Positions 28,596-46,852 of a stretch of DNA of 64,000 nucleotides are shown piece after piece. A model generated the notes under the pieces. The model did no database searches and was not told the origin of the DNA. It saw only the letters and a list, made by a program, of their open reading frames with translations. The DNA comes from an uncultured Acidimicrobiia bacterium (GTDB taxonomy: Bacteria > Actinomycetota > Acidimicrobiia > Spongiisociales > ZC4RG35). The position numbers and the translations under genes are program-made. Positions within the stretch are counted from its first letter, which is position 1, and each line of letters opens with the position of its first letter. The stretch is taken from NCBI GenBank assembly GCA_964195405.1, contig CAXMPK010000029.1, positions 33,229-97,228 on the forward strand. The letters run 5' to 3'.

Positions 28596-29477
28596 CTACG
28601 CACCACCGATACAGCTGGGGCCTTGGGGGTAATTGATTGTCAGGATTGGCGCCCGCGGAGTCTCCACGACCTGACCGGTGCGGATGATCAAACGATTGTT
28701 CTGGTTTTCGACGACGAAACGGTCGAGGTTGCGGGGAGCGGGGCCGGCAAAATACTGGCCGATCGAATTGTATTTCGACCCATGGCATGGGCACTCAAAA
28801 CCCTGTGAAGGACCACACCAGGGCACACGACACCCAAGGTGGACACACCTTTGGAACAGAGCCATCAGATTGTCTGTGGTGACACTCCTTCCGGCGAACT
28901 GCTCGGAGACGGACGAGGCAGGAGCTGGAACGATATAGGCCTTGGCCTCGGGGACGAACAGTGGCAGGATCGATCCATCTGATGCGAAGACGGCCGTCTG
29001 GATTGCGCCGATTTCACCGGCGTCAACATCAGATCCAAATCCTCCGCTCAGCTTTGGCCAGAAGAACGCCAGATAATAAATCCCCTGCATACCCAAGAAT
29101 GCGAAAAAGGTGGCGCCAAGTGCCCTGTTGAAGAACTGCCGCCGGGTAACCCCCGATTCCTCCGGCGCCACCTCGACAACACGCTGAGTCTCCAATACTG
29201 CGACTGCAGTCGTCACCGTTTCGGCAGCAGGCTCGATCTCAACCACGGCCTCTTCGGCCGCGACCTCGTCGACCGGCTGCTCATCCAGCGTCGGAATGGG
29301 ATCAACCCGGACACCGTCCATCGAGCGGTCTGACTTCAGCGTCTCGTTGCTCAGTCCGGCGCCGGCATCGATTGGCTTCTCCTTCTCCGAACGCCGGTAG
29401 GCGATCGTAAAGGCGCCTACCGCCCCAAGAATGGCGAATAAGGCCACCCCGATCAGGACCATGTCGGTAAAACTCAT
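28596..29477 (-). CDS. Rieske [2Fe-2S] subunit
   Basis: CVHLGCRV ... CPCHGSKY Rieske boxes. Internal twin-arginine motif TRRQFFNRALGA after an N-terminal TM helix. Confidence 0.9.
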   Translation of the reverse strand: MSFTDMVLIGVALFAILGAVGAFTIAYRRSEKEKPIDAGAGLSNETLKSDRSMDGVRVDPIPTLDEQPVDEVAAEEAVVEIEPAAETVTTAVAVLETQRVVEVAPEESGVTRRQFFNRALGATFFAFLGMQGIYYLAFFWPKLSGGFGSDVDAGEIGAIQTAVFASDGSILPLFVPEAKAYIVPAPASSVSEQFAGRSVTTDNLMALFQRCVHLGCRVPWCGPSQGFECPCHGSKYNSIGQYFAGPAPRNLDRFVVENQNNRLIIRTGQVVETPRAPILTINYPQGPSCIGGA

Positions 29478-30448
29478 TCGAAGTCGACCCAGTCCTTTAA
29501 GTCATCAAAGAAGATGCCGTCCTTCCAGGGATATGACCAGTTGAACCCCTTCCCTCTGAACAACACGCCGATGATGGTGAGGGTTGCCGAGCCGGCCAGG
29601 AAGATGGAATAGAGAAGAATTGCGAATTTGCGGTCGCTGGGTCGAGTCGACGGGTTCTTGTCAACAAACGGCACCATCATGAAACCGATCAAACCGACGA
29701 ACAACGGGACTAAGACTCCGGCCACCTGGGGATCGAAATAGCTCAGCAGCTCCTGAAGCCCCAAGAAGTACCACGGCGCCTTTGATGGGTTGGGTGTGGC
29801 GTTGAAGTTGGCTGGATCCAGCAACGGCGAGTGAATGACCACGGCCATGATCACCAAGATTCCGGTGATTAGAAGCAGCGCTCCGAACTCCATGAGCATT
29901 AGGTGTGGCCAGGTATTGACCTTGTCCATCGGCTCGGCTTTGACGTTTTGAATCGCCCGGGCTTTGACAACCGTGAGCAAGCGTTGGGTGCGGACACCCT
30001 CCGGTGTTCCGGTCGGTGGCACCGATGGACGGGGGCTGACCAGCCCAGCAACCTTGCCGTTGCCACCACCGTTGGTCTCGGGATCCGGTGGCTCGGCTAC
30101 TTCTTGCTCGTCTTCTCCCACCTGCTCGGCAGGAGAAGACTCAACGAGAGCGGCAACCACAACCGGTGTTTTCTCTACTTCAGCCACCGACTCTTCAACA
30201 ATTGGTTCGGACTCCGATTCGGACTCGAGTTCGGGTTTGCCGCCTTCCGCAACCATGGCGGCCGGAGACTCAGCCGGATCGGGGTTCTCATCGACTTCAA
30301 CAACGTCTTCGACCAATGCAGTCACGGGTACTTCGACCGGGGGACCTTCGCCTTTCATCTCGGCCAACACCTGCTCAACCGGCACACCTAGCGCCTTGGC
30401 CTTCGCCTCTGCCGATCTCCTCAAGAGACTCTCTGGGATTTCAACCAT
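29474..30448 (-). CDS. cytochrome b C-terminal-half protein (b6f subunit-IV-like) with a long acidic N-terminal extension
   Basis: C-terminal ~170 aa with KAPWYFLGLQELL (PEWY-region equivalent) and 3 TM helices. ATG at 30448 is preceded by GGAG. The N-terminal ~150 aa are acidic low-complexity, preceded by the module IPESLLRRSAEAKAKALGVPVEQVLAEM. Confidence 0.8.
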   Translation of the reverse strand: MVEIPESLLRRSAEAKAKALGVPVEQVLAEMKGEGPPVEVPVTALVEDVVEVDENPDPAESPAAMVAEGGKPELESESESEPIVEESVAEVEKTPVVVAALVESSPAEQVGEDEQEVAEPPDPETNGGGNGKVAGLVSPRPSVPPTGTPEGVRTQRLLTVVKARAIQNVKAEPMDKVNTWPHLMLMEFGALLLITGILVIMAVVIHSPLLDPANFNATPNPSKAPWYFLGLQELLSYFDPQVAGVLVPLFVGLIGFMMVPFVDKNPSTRPSDRKFAILLYSIFLAGSATLTIIGVLFRGKGFNWSYPWKDGIFFDDLKDWVDFE

Positions 30449-30458
30449 TGAATACTCC

Positions 30459-31235
30459 TTACAAGGGACCCGAGACGCCGCCATCTTTGCGGACCCGCCA
30501 GAAATGAATCGCCATGAAGATCACGATGATGAATGGGAACGCCAGCACATGGAGCACGTAGAAGCGAAGCAAGGTGGCTCCGCTTACCTCGACACCCGCA
30601 AGCAGGGCGAATTTGACCTGGTCACCGATGATCGGCGAGAAACCAGCCATATTGGAGCCCACTGTCACGGCCCACAAGGCCAATTGGTCCCATGGCAGCA
30701 GGTATCCGGAGAAAGACAGGAACAGTGTCAGGAAAAGAAGCACGACTCCAACTACCCAGTTGAACTCACGTGGCGGCTTGTAGGCACCGTGATAGAAGAC
30801 ACGGCTCATGTGGAGAAACACCGACAACACCATGAGGTGAGCTCCCCATCGGTGGATGTTTCTCACCAATGAACCAAACGCCACATCGGTGGAGAGCGCC
30901 TGCATGTCGGGATAGGCCAGCTCAGCGGTTGGCGTGTAATAGAACATCAAGAAGATGCCGGTGATGGTGAGGACGATGAACAAGAAGAAGCTGAGACCAC
31001 CGAGACACAAGGTGTAGGAAAGCTTGACACCATGACGCTTCACCTTGACGGGATGGAGGTGGTAGAGGACGTTGTTCATCACGACATAAGAACGGTTTCT
31101 GGGGCTGTCCGAGTAGCCCTGCTTGAAAGGCGAGCCGGGACGGAGGATGGCTCCGACAAGCTGGCTGTTCCACAGTTTCTCGTTGGTCTCCTTAACCCGC
31201 TCTTTGAGCCCAACTTTGCCGTTGCCGTTAGCCAT
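30459..31235 (-). CDS. cytochrome b6-type (N-terminal-half) cytochrome b
   Basis: His pairs [15 protein letters not shown] (14 apart) and [16 protein letters not shown] (15 apart, the b6-type spacing). YTLCLGG matches the b6 FYCLGG heme-ci Cys region. PWDQ motif present. Confidence 0.88.
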
Positions 31236-39461: not shown

Positions 39462-40448
39462 TCACGAACTTGCCAAGACCTCGGCGAGAAGAACAGGGTC
39501 AACACTCCCACCGCTGATGAGGCACACGGTCTTTCCTCTCGTGGTCTCCGGTATCTTCAGAGCAGCTGCCACCGACGCAGCGCCAGCCCCCTCGGTGACG
39601 AGCTTGTCGTTCATCGCGAGCCGGCCCATTGCAGCTTTCACCTCGTCTTCGGAGACGACCACAACTTCGTCGATGAGTGAGCGCAACATCGGATACATGT
39701 TGTGAGTGATCACCGGAGTAGAGGCTCCTTCGACGACGGTTTTGTTCCAGTCGATCCACACCGGGCCACCCGCCTCGAATGCGGCCAGCAACGCCGAGTT
39801 CACCTCGGCCTGGACACCAAAAATCCGCACCGATGGCTTGAGGGACTTCACCACCGACGCTACTCCAGCAATCAATGCACCACCGCCGACAGGGACGAAC
39901 ACGGAGTCGAGTTCGCCGAGATCCTCCATGATCTCGAGGCCGATCGTGCCGTGCCCGGCGATCATCAACGGCTCACCCCACGGATTGAGATAGTGGTAGG
40001 ACTCGGAGCGCCAGCCTTCCTCAAACATGTAAATCATCAGATCCGTCATCGAAACACTGACAAGTTCGGTGCCGTATGCCTCGATCGCCGCTCGCTTCGC
40101 ATCATGGAGAGTTTCGGGCACAAGGGACCGCGAGCCGACTCCGAGCTGTGTGGCCATATAGCCAACCGCCTGTGCGGTGTTTCCGGCACTGGTTGTCGAC
40201 AGCCCTTGTTTCGCCTGGTCCGGGGTGAGGGACAGGGCCCAGTTGCCGACACCCCGGACCTTGAACGATCCGATCGGCTGGAGGACCTCGGGTTTCAGAT
40301 AGATCTGACCAGACTCGTCACCCTTCAGTCTCATCAAAGGGGTGCGGACGATGGTTCCCACCAGTCTTAGCGCGGCCTCACGCACTTGTGTCAGGGGCGG
40401 AGGTTGCACCGGATCACCTGGCCATCCCGTTGGCCTGGATTCAGACAT
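39462..40448 (-). CDS. PLP-dependent threonine/serine dehydratase family enzyme
   Basis: PIGSFKVRG (PLP Lys), GNTAQAVG and VPVGGGALIAG motifs of the fold-type II Trp-synthase-beta-like family. Confidence 0.8.
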   Translation of the reverse strand: MSESRPTGWPGDPVQPPPLTQVREAALRLVGTIVRTPLMRLKGDESGQIYLKPEVLQPIGSFKVRGVGNWALSLTPDQAKQGLSTTSAGNTAQAVGYMATQLGVGSRSLVPETLHDAKRAAIEAYGTELVSVSMTDLMIYMFEEGWRSESYHYLNPWGEPLMIAGHGTIGLEIMEDLGELDSVFVPVGGGALIAGVASVVKSLKPSVRIFGVQAEVNSALLAAFEAGGPVWIDWNKTVVEGASTPVITHNMYPMLRSLIDEVVVVSEDEVKAAMGRLAMNDKLVTEGAGAASVAAALKIPETTRGKTVCLISGGSVDPVLLAEVLASS

Positions 40449-40497: not shown

Positions 40498-40878
40498 GTG
40501 GAAAAGATCATTGCCGACGGGTTGGCACGGCTTCCGTCATTCAGCCATGCGGTTGTGGCCGGAGACACGATCTACGTGTCGGGGAGCTTGGGCACACTTC
40601 CGAATTCGATGGAACTGGTTCCTGGCGGAGTTGGCCCGGAAACAACTCAAACCATCGCCAATATCACGCGAATCCTCGAGGAGTGCGGCGCCACGACCGA
40701 CGACATCGTGAAGGTGAACGTATATGTATCCGATATGTCGACGTTCGGTGACATGAACGACGCATACCTCAAAGTGTTCGGCGACTCCCCACCTGCCCGT
40801 ATCACCGTGGGCGGCGTCGACCTTGCGCTCGGTGCCGCAGTCGAGATCGACTGCATCGCGTGGAAGGGAACCGACTAG
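40498..40878 (+). CDS. ridA: RidA/YjgF-family reactive-intermediate deaminase
   Basis: GDTIYVSGSLG ... VKVNVYVSDMSTFGDMNDAY ... PARITVGGVDLALGAAVEIDCIA. GTG at 40498 lies 8 nt after AGGAGG. Divergent from the dehydratase gene. Confidence 0.8.
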   Translation: MEKIIADGLARLPSFSHAVVAGDTIYVSGSLGTLPNSMELVPGGVGPETTQTIANITRILEECGATTDDIVKVNVYVSDMSTFGDMNDAYLKVFGDSPPARITVGGVDLALGAAVEIDCIAWKGTD

Positions 40879-41426
40879 TTGTCGGGGATCCAGTCCTCCA
40901 ACGGGATGCCCAAACCGTCAGCTATTCGGTTGGCATATGCGTAATACCCCACGACTTCTGTGATGTGGAGAATGTCGGTGTCGGTGAACTCGAGCTCTTT
41001 CAAACGCACCACGTCTTGTTCTGCGACGCTGCCTGGGTTGACAGTGAGCTTCAAGGCATAGTCGAGCATGGCGATGCGTTTCTCTGTTATCCCGGCGGTC
41101 TGGTAATTGTCCTCGATGCGAGCGGCGAGATCATCATCTCGCAACAACCGGCGAAGACCGCGCCGGTGATGGGTCAGTCAGTAGTGGCAGTCGTTTTTCT
41201 TGGATACGACCAGCGCAATCATCTCACGCTCCACCTTGCGGAGAGTTTTCGTCCCTTTCATGGCCTGGCGATAGAGGACGTAGTGGGCGTTCATACTCCC
41301 GGCGTCGAGAGCGTGAATCCGCAAGATCCAATCGACCCGCTTGTGGACGGGGTCGATGATTTCATCTTTCAACCTCTTCAGATCATCGCCCCACTTGTCT
41401 TCGTGCGGGGCTTCGATCCAGGGCAT
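40875..41426 (-). CDS. AhpD/carboxymuconolactone-decarboxylase-family peroxidase-related protein with in-frame TGA at the second Cys of CxxC (candidate selenoprotein)
   Basis: Track ORFs 41178-41426 and 40875-41147 share one frame. The joined product reads ...LVVSKKNDCHY[TGA]LTHHRRGLRRLLRDDDLAA... and matches the CxxCxxxH AhpD-like motif. A SECIS-like hairpin lies downstream. Confidence 0.65.
41147..41167 (-). promoter_or_regulatory. candidate bacterial SECIS stem-loop
   Basis: Minus strand: UGA, 10 nt, then ACCGGCG-CGGUCUU-CGCCGGU (7-bp stem). The GGUC in the loop starts 18 nt after UGA, the same spacing and loop core as recalled for E. coli fdhF. Confidence 0.55.
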
Positions 41427-41461: not shown

Positions 41462-42739
41462 CTAACCAAGGTCGACGTCGCGGGCCACCAGGTCATCGAA
41501 CGTCTCACGTCGAACCACCAGTCGGGCATGTCCATTCTTGGCGAAGACAACGGGAGGCCGAAGCGCCATGTTGTAATTGGACCCCATCGTGTGTCCGTAG
41601 GCGCCGGTGACGGGCGTGCACAGCAGGTCGCCCACGTCGATACTCGCCGGGATACGACCACTCCAAACCAGAACATCACCTGATTCGCAGTGTTTCCCCA
41701 CCACCCGAATCTCTCGATCTCGATCCTCGTCGGCCGCAGTCGGAGCAAACACTTCGTAGCCACTGCCGTATAAGACCGGCCTCGGGTTGTCGCTCATACC
41801 GCCATCGACCGAGACGTAGGTTCGTACCCCGGGGATAGCCTTGATCGTCCCGACTCTGTAGACGGTCACCGCGGCTTGAGCCACAATCGAACGACCTGGC
41901 TCGGCCATAACCCGTGCATCGATTCCAGCGTCGTTCGCGGCCAGGCGAACTGCATCGCCCCACTCACCGATCGAGGGCGCCTCTTCGCCCTCCACATAGG
42001 CAACGCCCAGACCACCACCGATGGAAAACTCCTCGATATCGAGCGGGCCAACGAACTCGCCGATTGCGAACACTGCTCTGTTGAAGGAAGCGACGTCAAA
42101 GACTTGGCTGCCGACATGAGCATGGACGCCGATCAGATCCATCGCCGGCGAATCCACGATCCGTCGAAAGGCCGCGAGGGCCCGGCCGTCTTCAATGGAG
42201 ATGCCGAACTTCGAGTCAACGACACCCGTCCGCAGATATTCGTGGGTGTGAGCCTCAATCCCAGGGTTGACACGGATCAATACAGTTGGAGGTGGCGATC
42301 CGTGTTCGACGAGCTCCTCGATCCTGTCGATCTCGACCATCGAGTCGATAACGATCCGGCCGACACCGGCCTCCATCGCCAACTTCAACTCACTAAGGCT
42401 TTTGTTGTTGCCGTGGAACACAAGGCGGTCCGGCGAGACACCGGCGGCAAGCGCCACGTGGATCTCTCCTCCCGTTGAGACATCGAGATCCATCCCCTCT
42501 TCCACAGCCAAACGAGCCATCGCACCACACAGAAAGGCCTTGGTCGCGTAGGCGACACCATCGGGAAAAGCTGCAACGGCCTCCCGACAGCGGGCTCGCA
42601 GATGCTCCTCGTCATATACAAAAAGCGGGGTGCCGTGCTCGCCAGAGAGCTCGGCGAGATCACAACCGGCGATAGAAAGCCGACCGTCCGCTCCAATCTC
42701 TGAGTTGTCGGGCAAGAGATGGCGGGGCAACACAGACAT
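41462..42739 (-). CDS. lysA: diaminopimelate decarboxylase
   Basis: 425 aa. AYATKAF (PLP Lys), HGNNKS, EPGRSIVAQA and CESGD motifs. Confidence 0.9.
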   Translation of the reverse strand: MSVLPRHLLPDNSEIGADGRLSIAGCDLAELSGEHGTPLFVYDEEHLRARCREAVAAFPDGVAYATKAFLCGAMARLAVEEGMDLDVSTGGEIHVALAAGVSPDRLVFHGNNKSLSELKLAMEAGVGRIVIDSMVEIDRIEELVEHGSPPPTVLIRVNPGIEAHTHEYLRTGVVDSKFGISIEDGRALAAFRRIVDSPAMDLIGVHAHVGSQVFDVASFNRAVFAIGEFVGPLDIEEFSIGGGLGVAYVEGEEAPSIGEWGDAVRLAANDAGIDARVMAEPGRSIVAQAAVTVYRVGTIKAIPGVRTYVSVDGGMSDNPRPVLYGSGYEVFAPTAADEDRDREIRVVGKHCESGDVLVWSGRIPASIDVGDLLCTPVTGAYGHTMGSNYNMALRPPVVFAKNGHARLVVRRETFDDLVARDVDLG

Positions 42740-42895: not shown

Positions 42896-43633
42896 CTAGT
42901 TGCTGAAGGTGACGCTGAACGCTGGCGCCCAACGAGAGACAACACGTCCGTAGTTCTCTCCGGCACGCATCATGTCGCCGGCCTCGAGCGCGTCTAACGA
43001 CTCCTGAACCAACTCACATGAGTTGTCGAATACCAGGTCTTCAGATTCGAATAGGTCGGCGACATCGCCGTAATCGAGCTCGACCATCGATCCCGAAGGA
43101 AATGGACCCAACCATTCGCCGAGCTGGCCAAGTTCCTGAGCCGGACCGGGGAAGACGTCGAGTTTCTCGATGATCTCATACGCCCGGTTCACCCGGCGCC
43201 GGCTCTCGTCAACATCGGAACGAAATCGGAGGCGCATCCCGTCCGGCGCCTCGTAGATCTGTTTCTGAGACGGATCGAAGGCGGTAAACCAGCGAACCGG
43301 AACGTGCCAAGCCGAGGTGAGCACATGGGACCGGTGTTCGGGGTGGGCACGGTGATATGCACGCAGCTCATGGTCGGCGGCTCTCGCCGCGTCCTCGGGG
43401 ATGAGACCGACCCCAAGCCCTTGAAAAGCGTTGGCGAACGCCACCGTCGACTCGAGCACACGAAGCCGGAGGTTGCGGGGACAGACCAAACGCTTGCCAT
43501 CCCAATCAGCTGTCCAGTGAGCATCGCCTTCCTCTTCGGACAGGAGTCCGTAAGTGCGTACGAAACCTGGGACCGGTTCCATCGACGCCTCGACCTCAGG
43601 CGCGTAAACCCTCAGATAGGCGGCCTTCGTCAT
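42896..43633 (-). CDS. conserved hypothetical protein
   Basis: 245 aa from MTKAAYLRVYAPE. Coding-like composition. No motif recognised. Confidence 0.5.
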   Translation of the reverse strand: MTKAAYLRVYAPEVEASMEPVPGFVRTYGLLSEEEGDAHWTADWDGKRLVCPRNLRLRVLESTVAFANAFQGLGVGLIPEDAARAADHELRAYHRAHPEHRSHVLTSAWHVPVRWFTAFDPSQKQIYEAPDGMRLRFRSDVDESRRRVNRAYEIIEKLDVFPGPAQELGQLGEWLGPFPSGSMVELDYGDVADLFESEDLVFDNSCELVQESLDALEAGDMMRAGENYGRVVSRWAPAFSVTFSN

Positions 43634-43737
43634 TGACCCATCCTGGCACAACCTCGGGTGTGCCCGCTAGGGGCGCAAGGGTTCACCCGAAGGTAAGATT
43701 GGGTTGTCCTGCCGCCGCCGGAGAGGAGACCCGGCCC

Positions 43738-44820
43738 TTGTTCGTTTTCGATGAAGTAGCCAAGGAAGGCCACGAACAGATCGTCTACGGCTTCGACAAG
43801 GTATCTGGTCTCAAGACAATCATCGCGATACACAGCACGGCTCTCGGTCCCGCCTTAGGCGGGACTCGCTTTTTTCCGTACAAGTCGGAGGACGATGCCC
43901 TCGAAGATGTGCTTCGGCTCTCCAAAGGAATGACTTTGAAAGCCGCCGCTGCCGGTCTCGACCTGGGCGGTGGGAAGGCTGTGATCATCGGGGACCCGAG
44001 ACGGGACAAGTCAGAGCGTCTTTTCCGGGCGTACGGACGCATCGTCGACTCGCTGCAAGGTCGATACATCACCGCCGAGGACGTCGGGACGACGACGACC
44101 GACCTCGATCTGGTTCGACGAGAAACCAGTTGGGCGCTGGGGGGCTCCGTCGCTCTTGGCGGTGCAGGTGATCCGTCACCCGTGACCGCCCGGGGTTTGT
44201 ATGCCGCGACAAGGGCTGTCGCACAAAAGCTCTGGAGAAACTCGGATGTGACAGGTCGCAAGTTCGCGGTGCAGGGTGTCGGCAAGGTGGGTTCTGCATT
44301 TGTCCAACTCCTCGTTGAGAACCGGGCCGAAGTCGTGATCACCGACGCCTACGAGCCGGCCATTGCCTCTGCCGTGGAGAAATACGGGGTAGAGGCAGTC
44401 GAGCCCGACGAGATCTTCAAAGTCGACTGCGACATATTCTCGCCCTGTGCACTCGGTGCAGGACTCAACGAGGACACCATCCCCGATCTCAACTGCGAGG
44501 CGATCGTGGGGAGCGCAAACAACCAATTGGCGACCGAAAAAGACGCCGCTCGCCTCGCGGATCGGGGGATCCTCTATGGCCCCGACTTCGTAGTCAACGC
44601 CGGCGGGCTGATCAACGTCTACGACGAACTGCACGGCTATTCGAAAACTAGGGTTCTACATCGAGTCGACTCAATCTATGAAGCAACCATGACCATCCTC
44701 GACGCTGCCGAGGAGCTTGGAATCAACCCCAACGAGGCCGCAGTCAAAGTCGCCGAAGACAGAATCCACCAAATCGGAAACTTACGTCGGTTCCGCCGCA
44801 GTGGACACGACCGCAACTGA
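43738..44820 (+). CDS. Leu/Val (Glu/Leu/Phe/Val family) amino-acid dehydrogenase
   Basis: GGTRFFPYKSEDDALEDVLRLSKGMTLKAAAAGLDLGGGKAVIIGDP and the NAD fold VQGVGKVGSAF. TTG at 43738 lies 9 nt after GGAGAGGAG; the track ORF starts further upstream. Confidence 0.85.
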   Translation: MFVFDEVAKEGHEQIVYGFDKVSGLKTIIAIHSTALGPALGGTRFFPYKSEDDALEDVLRLSKGMTLKAAAAGLDLGGGKAVIIGDPRRDKSERLFRAYGRIVDSLQGRYITAEDVGTTTTDLDLVRRETSWALGGSVALGGAGDPSPVTARGLYAATRAVAQKLWRNSDVTGRKFAVQGVGKVGSAFVQLLVENRAEVVITDAYEPAIASAVEKYGVEAVEPDEIFKVDCDIFSPCALGAGLNEDTIPDLNCEAIVGSANNQLATEKDAARLADRGILYGPDFVVNAGGLINVYDELHGYSKTRVLHRVDSIYEATMTILDAAEELGINPNEAAVKVAEDRIHQIGNLRRFRRSGHDRN

Positions 44821-44824
44821 CTTA

Positions 44825-46852
44825 ATGACAACACCGGACAGCACGATGGATCACAGACTTCTTGGTCTGAGCGATGGCCAAATTGTCGAGATGTATCGAT
44901 TGATGTTGATGGCTCGTCGAGTCGATGACCGGATGTGGGCCTTACAACGCCAAGGGCGGGCTGCCTTCGTATTGGGGGCCTCAGGACACGAGGCGATCCA
45001 GGTGGCATCGGTCTTCGCACTCGACCGATCCAAAGACTGGCTCTTGCCCTATTACCGGGACATGGGGGTAGCCCTTGCCTGGGGATTTGACCCCAAAGAG
45101 ATATTCCTGGGCGTATTTGCGAAAAGGGACGACCCGATGTCAGGTGGCCGTCAGCTCCCCAGTCATTGGTCAGACCCAGAGCGGAGAGTGTTCACCCAGT
45201 CATCGGTCATCGGAACCCAATTTCCTCATGCCGCTGGGATCGCCCACGGGCTCAAGCTGGGTGACACCGACGCTGTCGCCGTCGTCTACGGAGGCGAGGG
45301 AGCCACATCCGAAGGCGACTGGCATGAAGCGATGAATTGGGCGGGAATCCACAGACTTCCGCTGATATTTGTCATCGAAAACAACGGATACGCCATCTCG
45401 GTGCCCACCTCCGAGCAGGTTGCCGGCCGCATCTCCGATCGTGCGCAGGGGTACGGGTTCCCCGGCCACCACATAGATGGCAACGACCCTTTCCAGGTTC
45501 TCGAGACGATGCAGAAGGCGGTAACCCGGGCTCGTGCCGGCGAGGGCCCAACCCTGATCGAGGCTGAGACATATCGTTACTACGCGCACACATCTGACGA
45601 CAACGACACCCTCTACCGCACTCAAGAAGAAGTGGAGACCTGGCGTAAGCGGGACCCTCTGGCCAAGCTCCGCCAGTATCTGATCGAAGAGCGTCTCCTC
45701 ACCGAGGCACAGGAGACAGAGATCGACGAACAGGTGGTCACTCAGCTGGCCAAGGCCGTCGAATTCGCCGAGTCTTCGCCTGACCCCGACGAGCCGACCA
45801 GTCGGGTTTACACGAAGGTCATCGAGATCGGAATGGCGTCGACGGAGCCCGAACCCGCCATCGAGGGGGAGCGTGTCAACTTGATCACCGCCATCAACCG
45901 CACTCTCCACGAGGTGATGGAAAAGCACGACGACGTCATCATCTTTGGTGAGGATGTTGCCAGAAAGAAGGGCGGTGTCTTCAAGGCAACCAAAGAGCTG
46001 ACCGAACGATTCGGCTCGGCCCGATGCTTCAACGCACCCATTGCCGAGTCATCAATCATCGGCTGTGCCATCGGAATGGCTGCCAGTGGCTACAAAGTGA
46101 TCCCGGAGATCCAGTTCGCCGATTACATCCATCCTGCTTTCGACCAGATCGTCTCGGAGGCAGCTCGGATCAGCTACCGATCTGACGGTCGATGGAACTG
46201 CCCCATCGTGATTCGGACTCCCTATGGGGCGGGAATCCATGGTGCGCAGTATCACTCCCAATCCATTGAGGCCTTCTACGCACACGTTCCCGGGCTCAAG
46301 GTGGTGATCCCATCAACACCGGCCGATGCAAAAGGCCTGCTCCACACTGCCGTCGAAGACCCCGACCCGGTCATATTCATCGAGCCCAAGAAGCTCTACC
46401 GCCTTGCCAAGGGCCCATTTCCAGAAGGCGACTACCACATCCCCCTGGGCAAGGCCGCAATCCGCCATGTCGGGACTGACCTGACGATCATCGCCTATGG
46501 CGCCATGGCCCACTTCGCGATGGAGGCTGTCCCGGTCCTGGAGAATTTGGGTATCAGCCCAGAGGTGATCGACCTGCGGAGCCTGCGCCCCCTCGACTGG
46601 CCGACCATCGAAGCATCGGTCAAGAAAACGGCCCGGGCCCTGATCGTCCACGAGGACAATGAGTTCGGTGGGTACGGCGCCGAGATCGCGGCCCAGATCG
46701 CCGACAAGACCTTCGAATGGCTGGACGCACCAGTGAAACGATATGGCCTCCCCGATGTGCCCGTGATGCCCTACGCAGGATCCCTCGAGCATGCCCTCTA
46801 CCCCACTCCCGAGACCATCGTGGAGAGAGCCCAGGAGTTGGCGAAATATTGA
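44825..46852 (+). CDS. 2-oxoacid (branched-chain type) dehydrogenase E1 component, fused alpha and beta subunits
   Basis: Alpha part has the TPP motif GEGATSEGDWHEAMNWAGIHRLPLIFVIENNGYAIS. Beta part has CFNAPIAESSIIGCAIGMA and the transketolase-C region. A single 675-aa ORF starting 4 nt after the dehydrogenase stop. Confidence 0.85.
   Translation: MTTPDSTMDHRLLGLSDGQIVEMYRLMLMARRVDDRMWALQRQGRAAFVLGASGHEAIQVASVFALDRSKDWLLPYYRDMGVALAWGFDPKEIFLGVFAKRDDPMSGGRQLPSHWSDPERRVFTQSSVIGTQFPHAAGIAHGLKLGDTDAVAVVYGGEGATSEGDWHEAMNWAGIHRLPLIFVIENNGYAISVPTSEQVAGRISDRAQGYGFPGHHIDGNDPFQVLETMQKAVTRARAGEGPTLIEAETYRYYAHTSDDNDTLYRTQEEVETWRKRDPLAKLRQYLIEERLLTEAQETEIDEQVVTQLAKAVEFAESSPDPDEPTSRVYTKVIEIGMASTEPEPAIEGERVNLITAINRTLHEVMEKHDDVIIFGEDVARKKGGVFKATKELTERFGSARCFNAPIAESSIIGCAIGMAASGYKVIPEIQFADYIHPAFDQIVSEAARISYRSDGRWNCPIVIRTPYGAGIHGAQYHSQSIEAFYAHVPGLKVVIPSTPADAKGLLHTAVEDPDPVIFIEPKKLYRLAKGPFPEGDYHIPLGKAAIRHVGTDLTIIAYGAMAHFAMEAVPVLENLGISPEVIDLRSLRPLDWPTIEASVKKTARALIVHEDNEFGGYGAEIAAQIADKTFEWLDAPVKRYGLPDVPVMPYAGSLEHALYPTPETIVERAQELAKY

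Follow-up and report, generated by a model that had tools for sequence, protein, structure and literature searches.

A predicted AhpD-like selenoprotein gene with a conserved hairpin after its in-frame UGA in an uncultured Acidimicrobiia bacterium

Redox proteins of the AhpD-like CxxU type, in which selenocysteine (Sec) takes the second position of the motif, have been reported before, as an earlier sequence-only reading of the DNA considered here had stated. The family (COG2128) was described in 2005 from 27 sequences in Sargasso Sea data; in the Global Ocean Sampling (GOS) data it ranked fourth in abundance among selenoprotein families, with 299 sequences, and a 2026 catalogue lists it as "AhpD-like protein, TIGR01926, CxxU". 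The signal that marks a UGA for Sec insertion can be compared with the selenocysteine insertion sequence (SECIS) of E. coli fdhF: its upper stem-loop spans nt 15-31, lies 11 nt from the UGA and carries G23 and U24 at the apex and a bulged U17, with U17 and G23 serving as SelB contacts (PMC8659212). The locus described here lies in a stretch of 64,000 nucleotides (the window) from an uncultured Acidimicrobiia bacterium (GCA_964195405.1, contig CAXMPK010000029.1, positions 33,229 to 97,228). Positions 40875-41426 of its minus strand, currently split in two by an in-frame UGA, are very probably one Sec-decoded gene for a 183-residue AhpD-like oxidoreductase of the TIGR01926 subfamily.

The split is easily described. 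Two minus-strand open reading frames (ORFs), 41178-41426 (82 aa, MPWIEAPHED...NDCHY) and 40875-41147 (90 aa), share one frame and are separated only by the TGA at 41178-41180 and 10 sense codons; the sequence-only reading had joined them at these same coordinates. The complete predicted gene (40875..41426, minus) runs from an ATG at 41424-41426 through 183 codons to a TAG stop, with the UGA as codon 83. Read-through gives a product of 183 residues, ...VVSKKNDCHY-[UGA]-LTHHRRGLRRLLRDDD..., in which the residues around the recoded site are ...SKKNDCHY-[TGA]-LTHHRRGLRR... and the UGA (41178..41180, minus), as the proposed codon for Sec83, supplies the second position of a C-H-Y-U redox motif. Gene callers make two ORFs of this, and public records name both halves "hypothetical protein". 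The possibility of a sequencing error, raised when the split was first noticed, could be checked directly: the locus is present in at least nine contigs, and four of these, fetched from different assemblies and samples of the same population, differ by 0-3 mismatches across the gene and are identical at the TGA and in the hairpin that follows it. Given this identity in four independent assemblies, a sequencing or assembly error is excluded.

Relatives keep the same arrangement. The comparison covered 80 loci from species-representative genomes, mostly Acidimicrobiia metagenome-assembled genomes (MAGs), whose products are 54-85% identical to the window product; 79 Sec-type sequences, 75 of them distinct, were analysed. 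The codon homologous to the UGA is TGA in 78 of the 80 loci and TGC in the other two; TAA and TAG do not occur at all (0/80). In 79 of 79 Sec-type sequences an open frame of 89-113 codons follows the TGA. Counted per site, pairwise differences at codon positions 1, 2 and 3 are 0.27, 0.25 and 0.54 downstream of the TGA and 0.27, 0.19 and 0.51 upstream, and this third-position bias on both sides points to purifying selection acting at the protein level on both halves. In databases the full-length form is rarely visible: a protein search found few full-length homologues and hundreds of proteins of about 100 aa that open with M/V-THHRRGLRR, their start having been called right after the stop. TGA is the true terminator of 59 of 78 of these orthologous genes and of 15 of the 25 long window ORFs. 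Since TGA ends most of these genes, it has not been reassigned here, and some local signal is needed to tell the two UGAs apart.

The likely signal is a SECIS-like hairpin at positions 14-34, counted from the U of the UGA (41147..41167, minus), within the codons for H-R-R-G-L-R-R. The minimum-free-energy (MFE) fold of 41120-41185 contains a 7-bp stem, ACCGGCG/CGCCGGU (14-20/28-34; 5' arm 41161-41167, 3' arm 41147-41153), that closes the loop CGGUCUU (41154-41160). GGUC occupies positions 22-25 and begins 18 nt past the UGA. The fold thereby reproduces the stem, the loop and the spacing (stem 10 nt, GGUC 18 nt past the UGA) that the sequence-only reading had picked out. In relatives the conserved core covers positions 16-32, which correspond to 41149-41165 (minus) in the window, with G23 at 41158 and U24 at 41157. 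The core helix 16-21/27-32 with a GGUCU loop is found in 74 of the 75 distinct Sec-type sequences, so that the hairpin, like the TGA (78/80), has been kept by the relatives, which was one of the checks proposed with the original reading. Cells of the core helix are paired in 83% of cases, compared with 26-49% when the partners are slid by 1-3 columns, and none of 500 shuffles matched the observed covariation score or the number of double changes. The covarying pairs are the wobble positions: pair 18-30 (GC 57, GU 9, AU 5, CG 2; Fisher p 6e-4 for A18/U30 and 4e-4 for C18/G30), pair 21-27 (CG 69, UA 3, UG 2; p 1e-4) and pair 15-33 (CG 30, UA 11; p 3e-4), where the p-values are indicative only because the sequences are phylogenetically related.

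Codon choice within the hairpin is also biased. Gly +7 is GGT in 78 of 79 sequences; the figure is 20% in the rest of the same genes, and 26/74 and 9/74 at two further Gly codons that are likewise invariant. Leu +8 is CTG in 75/79 (33% in the rest of the same genes), Arg +6 is CGC in 74/79 and Arg +5 is CGG in 69/79 (background about 30% for each), and codon choice is free at Arg +10, which lies below the core stem. In the loop, G23 never varies, and 74 of 75 distinct sequences (78/79 overall) have U24. Pairing, covariation and synonymous choice together argue that the hairpin is under selection as RNA. Cys-type relatives show its relaxation: among the three examined the hairpin is intact in L081, has lost one pair in L004 and is broken in L007. 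One further locus (L083:3247-3291; GCA_024275815.1, JAJRYI010000263.1) has TTA (Leu) at the Sec codon, one base off TGA, next to an intact hairpin that carries a compensatory U18-A30 pair found nowhere else; this TTA may reflect a recent mutation, an error, or a genuine loss of function through a Sec-to-Leu change. Two other structural observations concern the window. A second 7-bp hairpin, GCGAGAU/AUCUCGC (41122-41145, minus), directly follows the SECIS-like one in the window MFE fold; it was rejected as part of the element, being missing from the 79-sequence consensus, and is probably lineage-specific or due to chance. In this high-GC DNA about 100 other same-frame ORF pairs in the window are split by TGA, none with an obvious GGUC-loop hairpin.

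The protein half of the argument rests on family membership and on the position of the UGA within the active site. When Cys was put in place of the UGA, the joined product matched TIGR01926 (NCBIfam, "peroxidase-related enzyme", AhpD-like) with 125.6 bits, compared with a cut-off of 81.8, and at full length (residues 3-176 of 183 on profile positions 2-175 of 178); it also matched the Pfam CMD and AhpD core-domain models. The original assignment to the AhpD/CMD family thus holds. Canonical AhpD is another matter: the joined product scores 17.5 bits against TIGR00777, below the cut-off of 191.95, and the flanking genes are lysA, a RidA-family gene and a threonine dehydratase gene, with no ahpC among them, so a canonical AhpD with an AhpC partner was ruled out. 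Five solved structures of the subfamily (3C1L, 2PFX, 2OYO, 6K40, 2PRR) align across the UGA, those of PDB 3C1L and 2PFX over residues 23/33-173 of the joined product. The UGA falls on the second Cys of C-x-x-C-L-T-x-H in the solved homologues, and on the second Cys of CxxC in the Cys homologues P0001-7, L004, L007 and L081, which is the alignment that a Sec codon in this family was expected to give. Cys80 (TGC, 41187..41189, minus), the first residue of CxxU and the partner of Sec83, Glu68 (GAG, 41223..41225, minus), 12 residues ahead of Cys80, and His87 (CAC, 41166..41168, minus), 4 residues past Sec, are invariant in the alignment, and the motif with Cys80 and either U83 or C83 is present in 80 of 80 loci. 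The spacing of Glu68, Cys80 and His87 equals that of Glu118, Cys130 and His137 in M. tuberculosis AhpD, where Glu118 and His137 belong to a proton relay (PMC3141380); Glu68 and His87 would be the counterparts of those two residues.

In M. tuberculosis AhpD the second Cys of the motif, the exposed Cys133, is the one that joins AhpC in a mixed disulfide; Cys130 lies partly buried. By analogy, because of this exposure and burial, Sec83 would take the attacking and not the resolving position. The sequence-only reading was right, then, that the UGA replaces the second Cys of CxxCxxxH; its description of that residue as the resolving Cys does not fit the analogy. Two relatives hint at a function: PA0269 reduces H2O2 weakly (PMC3141380), and deletion of DR1765 in D. 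radiodurans raises H2O2 sensitivity. With Sec at the attacking position, the joined product would be a selenol-based reductase or peroxidase that acts in oxidative-stress defence.

These lines of evidence fit a familiar mechanism. The mRNA would fold into a short G+C-rich hairpin starting 10-12 nt past the UGA, with G23 and U24 exposed in its apical loop. SelB, loaded with Sec-tRNA(Sec) and GTP, would attach to this loop through its C-terminal winged-helix domain as the UGA occupies the ribosomal A site, and codon 83 would be read as Sec instead of ending translation. The same stretch of RNA also encodes HRRGLRR, whose CGN Arg codons are self-complementary, so that peptide and RNA structure would have evolved together. 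In the folded protein, Sec83 would stand in for the exposed attacking Cys, paired with Cys80 and served by a proton relay of Glu68 and His87. The data establish how the gene is built, the family to which it belongs, the conservation of its TGA, the selection on the hairpin as RNA and the protein-level selection past the TGA; dependence on SelB, the incorporation of selenium and the biochemical substrate are predictions. The original conclusion, that this is a Sec-decoded redox protein and not a pseudogene, has gained support from the TGA in 78 of 80 loci, the selection on the hairpin and the purifying selection downstream.

Three other explanations can be considered. In the first, the UGA is translated without Sec, as Trp, Cys or Gly, through a reassigned code or through near-cognate suppression stimulated by the hairpin. 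Some database translations do have W at this position, CxxW and CxxG forms occur among the family representatives, and downstream hairpins can in general stimulate read-through. The W, where it was checked, has another source: full-length database proteins P0009 and P0011-P0014 have W at the Sec position, and for P0009 the DNA (L082:619-621) reads TGA and its code 11 translation differs from the database sequence, which makes the W a gene-caller artefact. TGA moreover is the stop of most genes here and ends 59 of 78 of the orthologues themselves; the position is that of a redox-active Cys, where exchange between Sec and Cys is the rule and where two relatives have TGC; the hairpin has a loop with a SelB-type G23/U24; and selA and selB exist in the lineage. 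Translation with a standard amino acid is thus very improbable. Hardly any more room is left, and probably slightly less, for a true split gene, in which an 82-aa N-terminal fragment and a separately initiated C-terminal protein of 90-100 aa are made and might associate. The idea draws on the codon after the TGA, which is ATG, GTG or TTG in many relatives and is where callers begin the 100-aa ORF, and on a TTG 10 codons downstream of the TGA in the window. In the window and several relatives, however, the codon after the TGA is CTG, ATC, ACG or GCA, none of them a start. The break would also fall inside CxxC-xxxH, on the catalytic Cys position, and would part Cys80 from His87; the stop is always TGA; a covarying, conserved hairpin would have no role; and the solved homologues are single domains that span the UGA site. 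The least probable account, a former CxxC gene inactivated by a nonsense mutation or by a sequencing or assembly error, could appeal to the split called by gene callers, to the "hypothetical protein" halves in public records and to the TTA of L083, which shows that the codon does mutate, but it is effectively refuted by a TGA that is shared by 78 of 80 species and never replaced by TAA or TAG, by a downstream half that is always open and under purifying selection, by the identical codon in four independent assemblies and by the RNA-level selection on the hairpin.

Several observations weigh against Sec decoding at this locus and need to be set beside the evidence for it. Taken alone, the window fold is only moderately unusual (z = -2.36), and 4 of 200 shuffles fold equally well; with so modest a value for the single sequence, the significance of the hairpin must rest on the comparison with relatives. 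The window is the sole Sec-type sequence in which C21 and U27 are unpaired (Leu is CUU for CUG), and this mismatch gives it a 7-nt loop; its hairpin gains the 14-34 and 15-33 pairs. The CGN Arg codons of RRGLRR are self-complementary, and part of the stem therefore comes free with the peptide. Unlike the fdhF element, the hairpin has no bulged U17; G17 is invariant and paired with C31. No Rfam SECIS model matched the whole window at the gathering threshold or 41000-41300 at E <= 10, where there were two chance matches only. This null result is expected because bacterial SECIS elements are poorly covered by Rfam, as a 2026 preprint notes. Finally, the machinery is missing from the immediate surroundings: there is no selA, selB or selD among the 20 long ORFs tested in the 64-kb window, and ARAGORN found no tRNA-Sec in about 1.2 Mb of flanking sequence from 83 relatives' loci. 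The absence of sel genes from only 64 kb is uninformative.

Sec-decoding genes are nevertheless found in related genomes. ARAGORN predicted no tRNA in the window and no tRNA-Sec at five selA loci. When E. coli SelA, SelB and SelD served as tblastn queries against the window and every locus, the only match was a selA in L050 (L050:1286-2308; TIGR00474, 418.7 bits), which lies about 70 nt downstream of the orthologue on a 2.3-kb contig. A general linkage between the AhpD-like gene and selA was considered and rejected, as the two are adjacent at 1 of 80 orthologue loci and 0 of 5 selA loci. There are thousands of close SelA homologues in Actinomycetota MAGs; the SelA matches that were looked up came from assemblies other than those of the window population (GCA_964194545.1, GCA_964194925.1, ERZ27250394). 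Four related Actinomycetota contigs (L088, L089, L090 and L091) have selA-selB operons whose SelB has winged-helix SECIS-binding domains, with no tRNA-Sec within 6-8 kb of selA-selB. On these contigs a gene for a response regulator, which in three of the four has an EAL domain, precedes selA-selB, and YjgF/RidA-like and WhiB genes follow; this order is a conserved neighbourhood for the Sec machinery in the four. According to a 2026 preprint, selA, selC, selD and a divergent selB are present in all 84 complete genomes of Actinomarina, an Acidimicrobiia order.

The peptide encoded by the hairpin was also compared across the family. A Cys-type homologue was used as the query against a library of representatives at 50% identity, and the 150 best family representatives were considered. 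Among these, 104 are CxxC proteins with varied tails (HHSAAIRRYV, HHAEALNFYW, AHAEFLRAAS and others), and RRGLRR occurs in none of the 104. Within the best 150 it was found only in fragments that start just past the stop; elsewhere the closely related Cys forms P0001-7 have it. At this place the solved homologues read HGAAVRQL. The peptide may have co-evolved with the SECIS. A broader idea, offered tentatively and with somewhat less than even confidence, is that HHRRGLRRLL is a protein footprint of the SECIS, in that CGGCGC-GGUCU-GCGCCG would dictate the palindromic Arg-Arg-Gly-Leu-Arg-Arg, and that it survives as a "fossil" in a few Cys revertants. The same tentative idea extends to the Sec-decoding trait in Acidimicrobiia: about 97% of the sampled Acidimicrobiia-type species retain the Sec form, and for this reason the gene could be among the selenoproteins that help to keep the trait. 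Other subclades contain C-terminal fragments that start just past CxxC and have different tails, such as SAHAEFLRAA (P0293, P0341, P0351, P0381), and, at the protein level, CxxW forms (P0273, P0286, P0360, P0366) and CxxG forms (P0248, P0249, P0279, P0372). The TIGR01926 family may, as the sequences suggest, include further independent Sec-containing clades with different SECIS-encoded peptides.

The genomic context is that of a chromosome, with core functions encoded in the window: the nuo operon, argS, lysA, a fused 2-oxoacid dehydrogenase E1, glnA and a cbb3-type oxidase. The gene lysA (diaminopimelate decarboxylase; 41462..42739, minus; TIGR01048, 420 bits) lies 35 nt upstream on the same strand and is directly upstream of the orthologue in 11 of the closest relatives. 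A scan found no promoter-like or terminator-like site between lysA and the AhpD-like gene, and the two may be co-transcribed. On the other side, a RidA-family gene (about 40504-40878, plus) converges on the AhpD-like gene so that their stops overlap by 4 nt, and it stands back to back with a threonine/serine dehydratase gene (39462-40448, minus); this pair adjoins the AhpD-like gene in the closest relatives only. At 43633-46852 (plus) a gene for a Glu/Leu/Phe/Val-type dehydrogenase is followed by a 711-aa ORF that fuses E1-alpha (residues 50-358) and E1-beta (residues 390-709), which places a fused 2-oxoacid dehydrogenase E1 of a lipoyl-dependent complex about 3 kb from the AhpD-like gene. In M. 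tuberculosis, AhpD receives its electrons through a lipoamide-containing protein. Further away (29474-30484, minus), a 336-aa membrane protein resembles ExtQ, the b-type cytochrome encoded in a selenite/tellurite reduction operon, with a score of 56.5 bits that stays below the cut-off of 150; probably it is an ordinary cytochrome b belonging to the respiratory cluster next to it.

The practical meaning of these results is mostly a matter of annotation. Hundreds of public Acidimicrobiia and Actinomycetota records either break this gene into two "hypothetical" fragments or place W at the Sec position, and the W-type entries conceal selenoproteins as seeming CxxW proteins. The consensus C-H-Y-UGA followed by CGGCGC-GGUCU-GCGCCG at +16 to +32 permits correct calling. 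The 79 sequences with their compensatory changes are a well-sampled natural example of a SECIS and its encoded peptide constraining each other, and the gene points to a probable antioxidant role for selenium in an actinobacterial class that is widespread and for the most part uncultured.

How closely does the locus resemble the systems already described? As in fdhF, the hairpin lies in the coding region right after the UGA, its stem begins 10-12 nt past the UGA (11 in fdhF), and an apical GGUC places G23 and U24 at identical numbered positions. Unlike in fdhF, it consists of 6-7 continuous G-C-rich pairs with a 5-nt GGUCU loop (7 nt in the window), and RNAalifold found no lower stem of the fdhF kind in the 79-sequence consensus. 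The fdhF likeness that had been noted for spacing and loop core therefore stands for G23/U24 and fails for the missing U17 bulge and for the loop, which is 5 nt across the family. The hairpin is SECIS-like in the sense of published descriptions of bacterial SECIS elements (PMC1088965, PMC8659212), and it would work like such an element without being a copy of that of fdhF. The protein belongs to the all-helical CMD/AhpD family together with M. tuberculosis AhpD and the solved AhpD-like proteins (3C1L, 2PFX, 2OYO, 6K40/DR1765, 2PRR and PA0269). It shares with the M. tuberculosis enzyme C-x-x-C/U-x-x-x-H and the upstream Glu at the spacing of Glu118/Cys130/Cys133/His137, and differs in its predicted Sec at the attacking Cys and in its neighbours, lysA and a RidA-family gene in place of ahpC. 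The closest match is the catalogued AhpD-like CxxU family of the Sargasso Sea and GOS data, with which the window gene shares the TIGR01926 model, Sec at the second position, a SECIS right after the UGA and widespread Cys homologues, and from which it differs in nothing in kind. It thus appears to belong, so far without annotation, to a known selenoprotein family and to use the known bacterial mechanism; there is no new mechanism and no new family here, and the outcome is mainly an annotation fix. What is added to the description of that family is that nearly all sampled members of a large Acidimicrobiia clade carry the Sec form (78 of 80 species representatives), that the clade has its own SECIS consensus, CGGCGC-GGUCU-GCGCCG, with natural compensatory variants, and that public records systematically split the gene or mistranslate its Sec codon.

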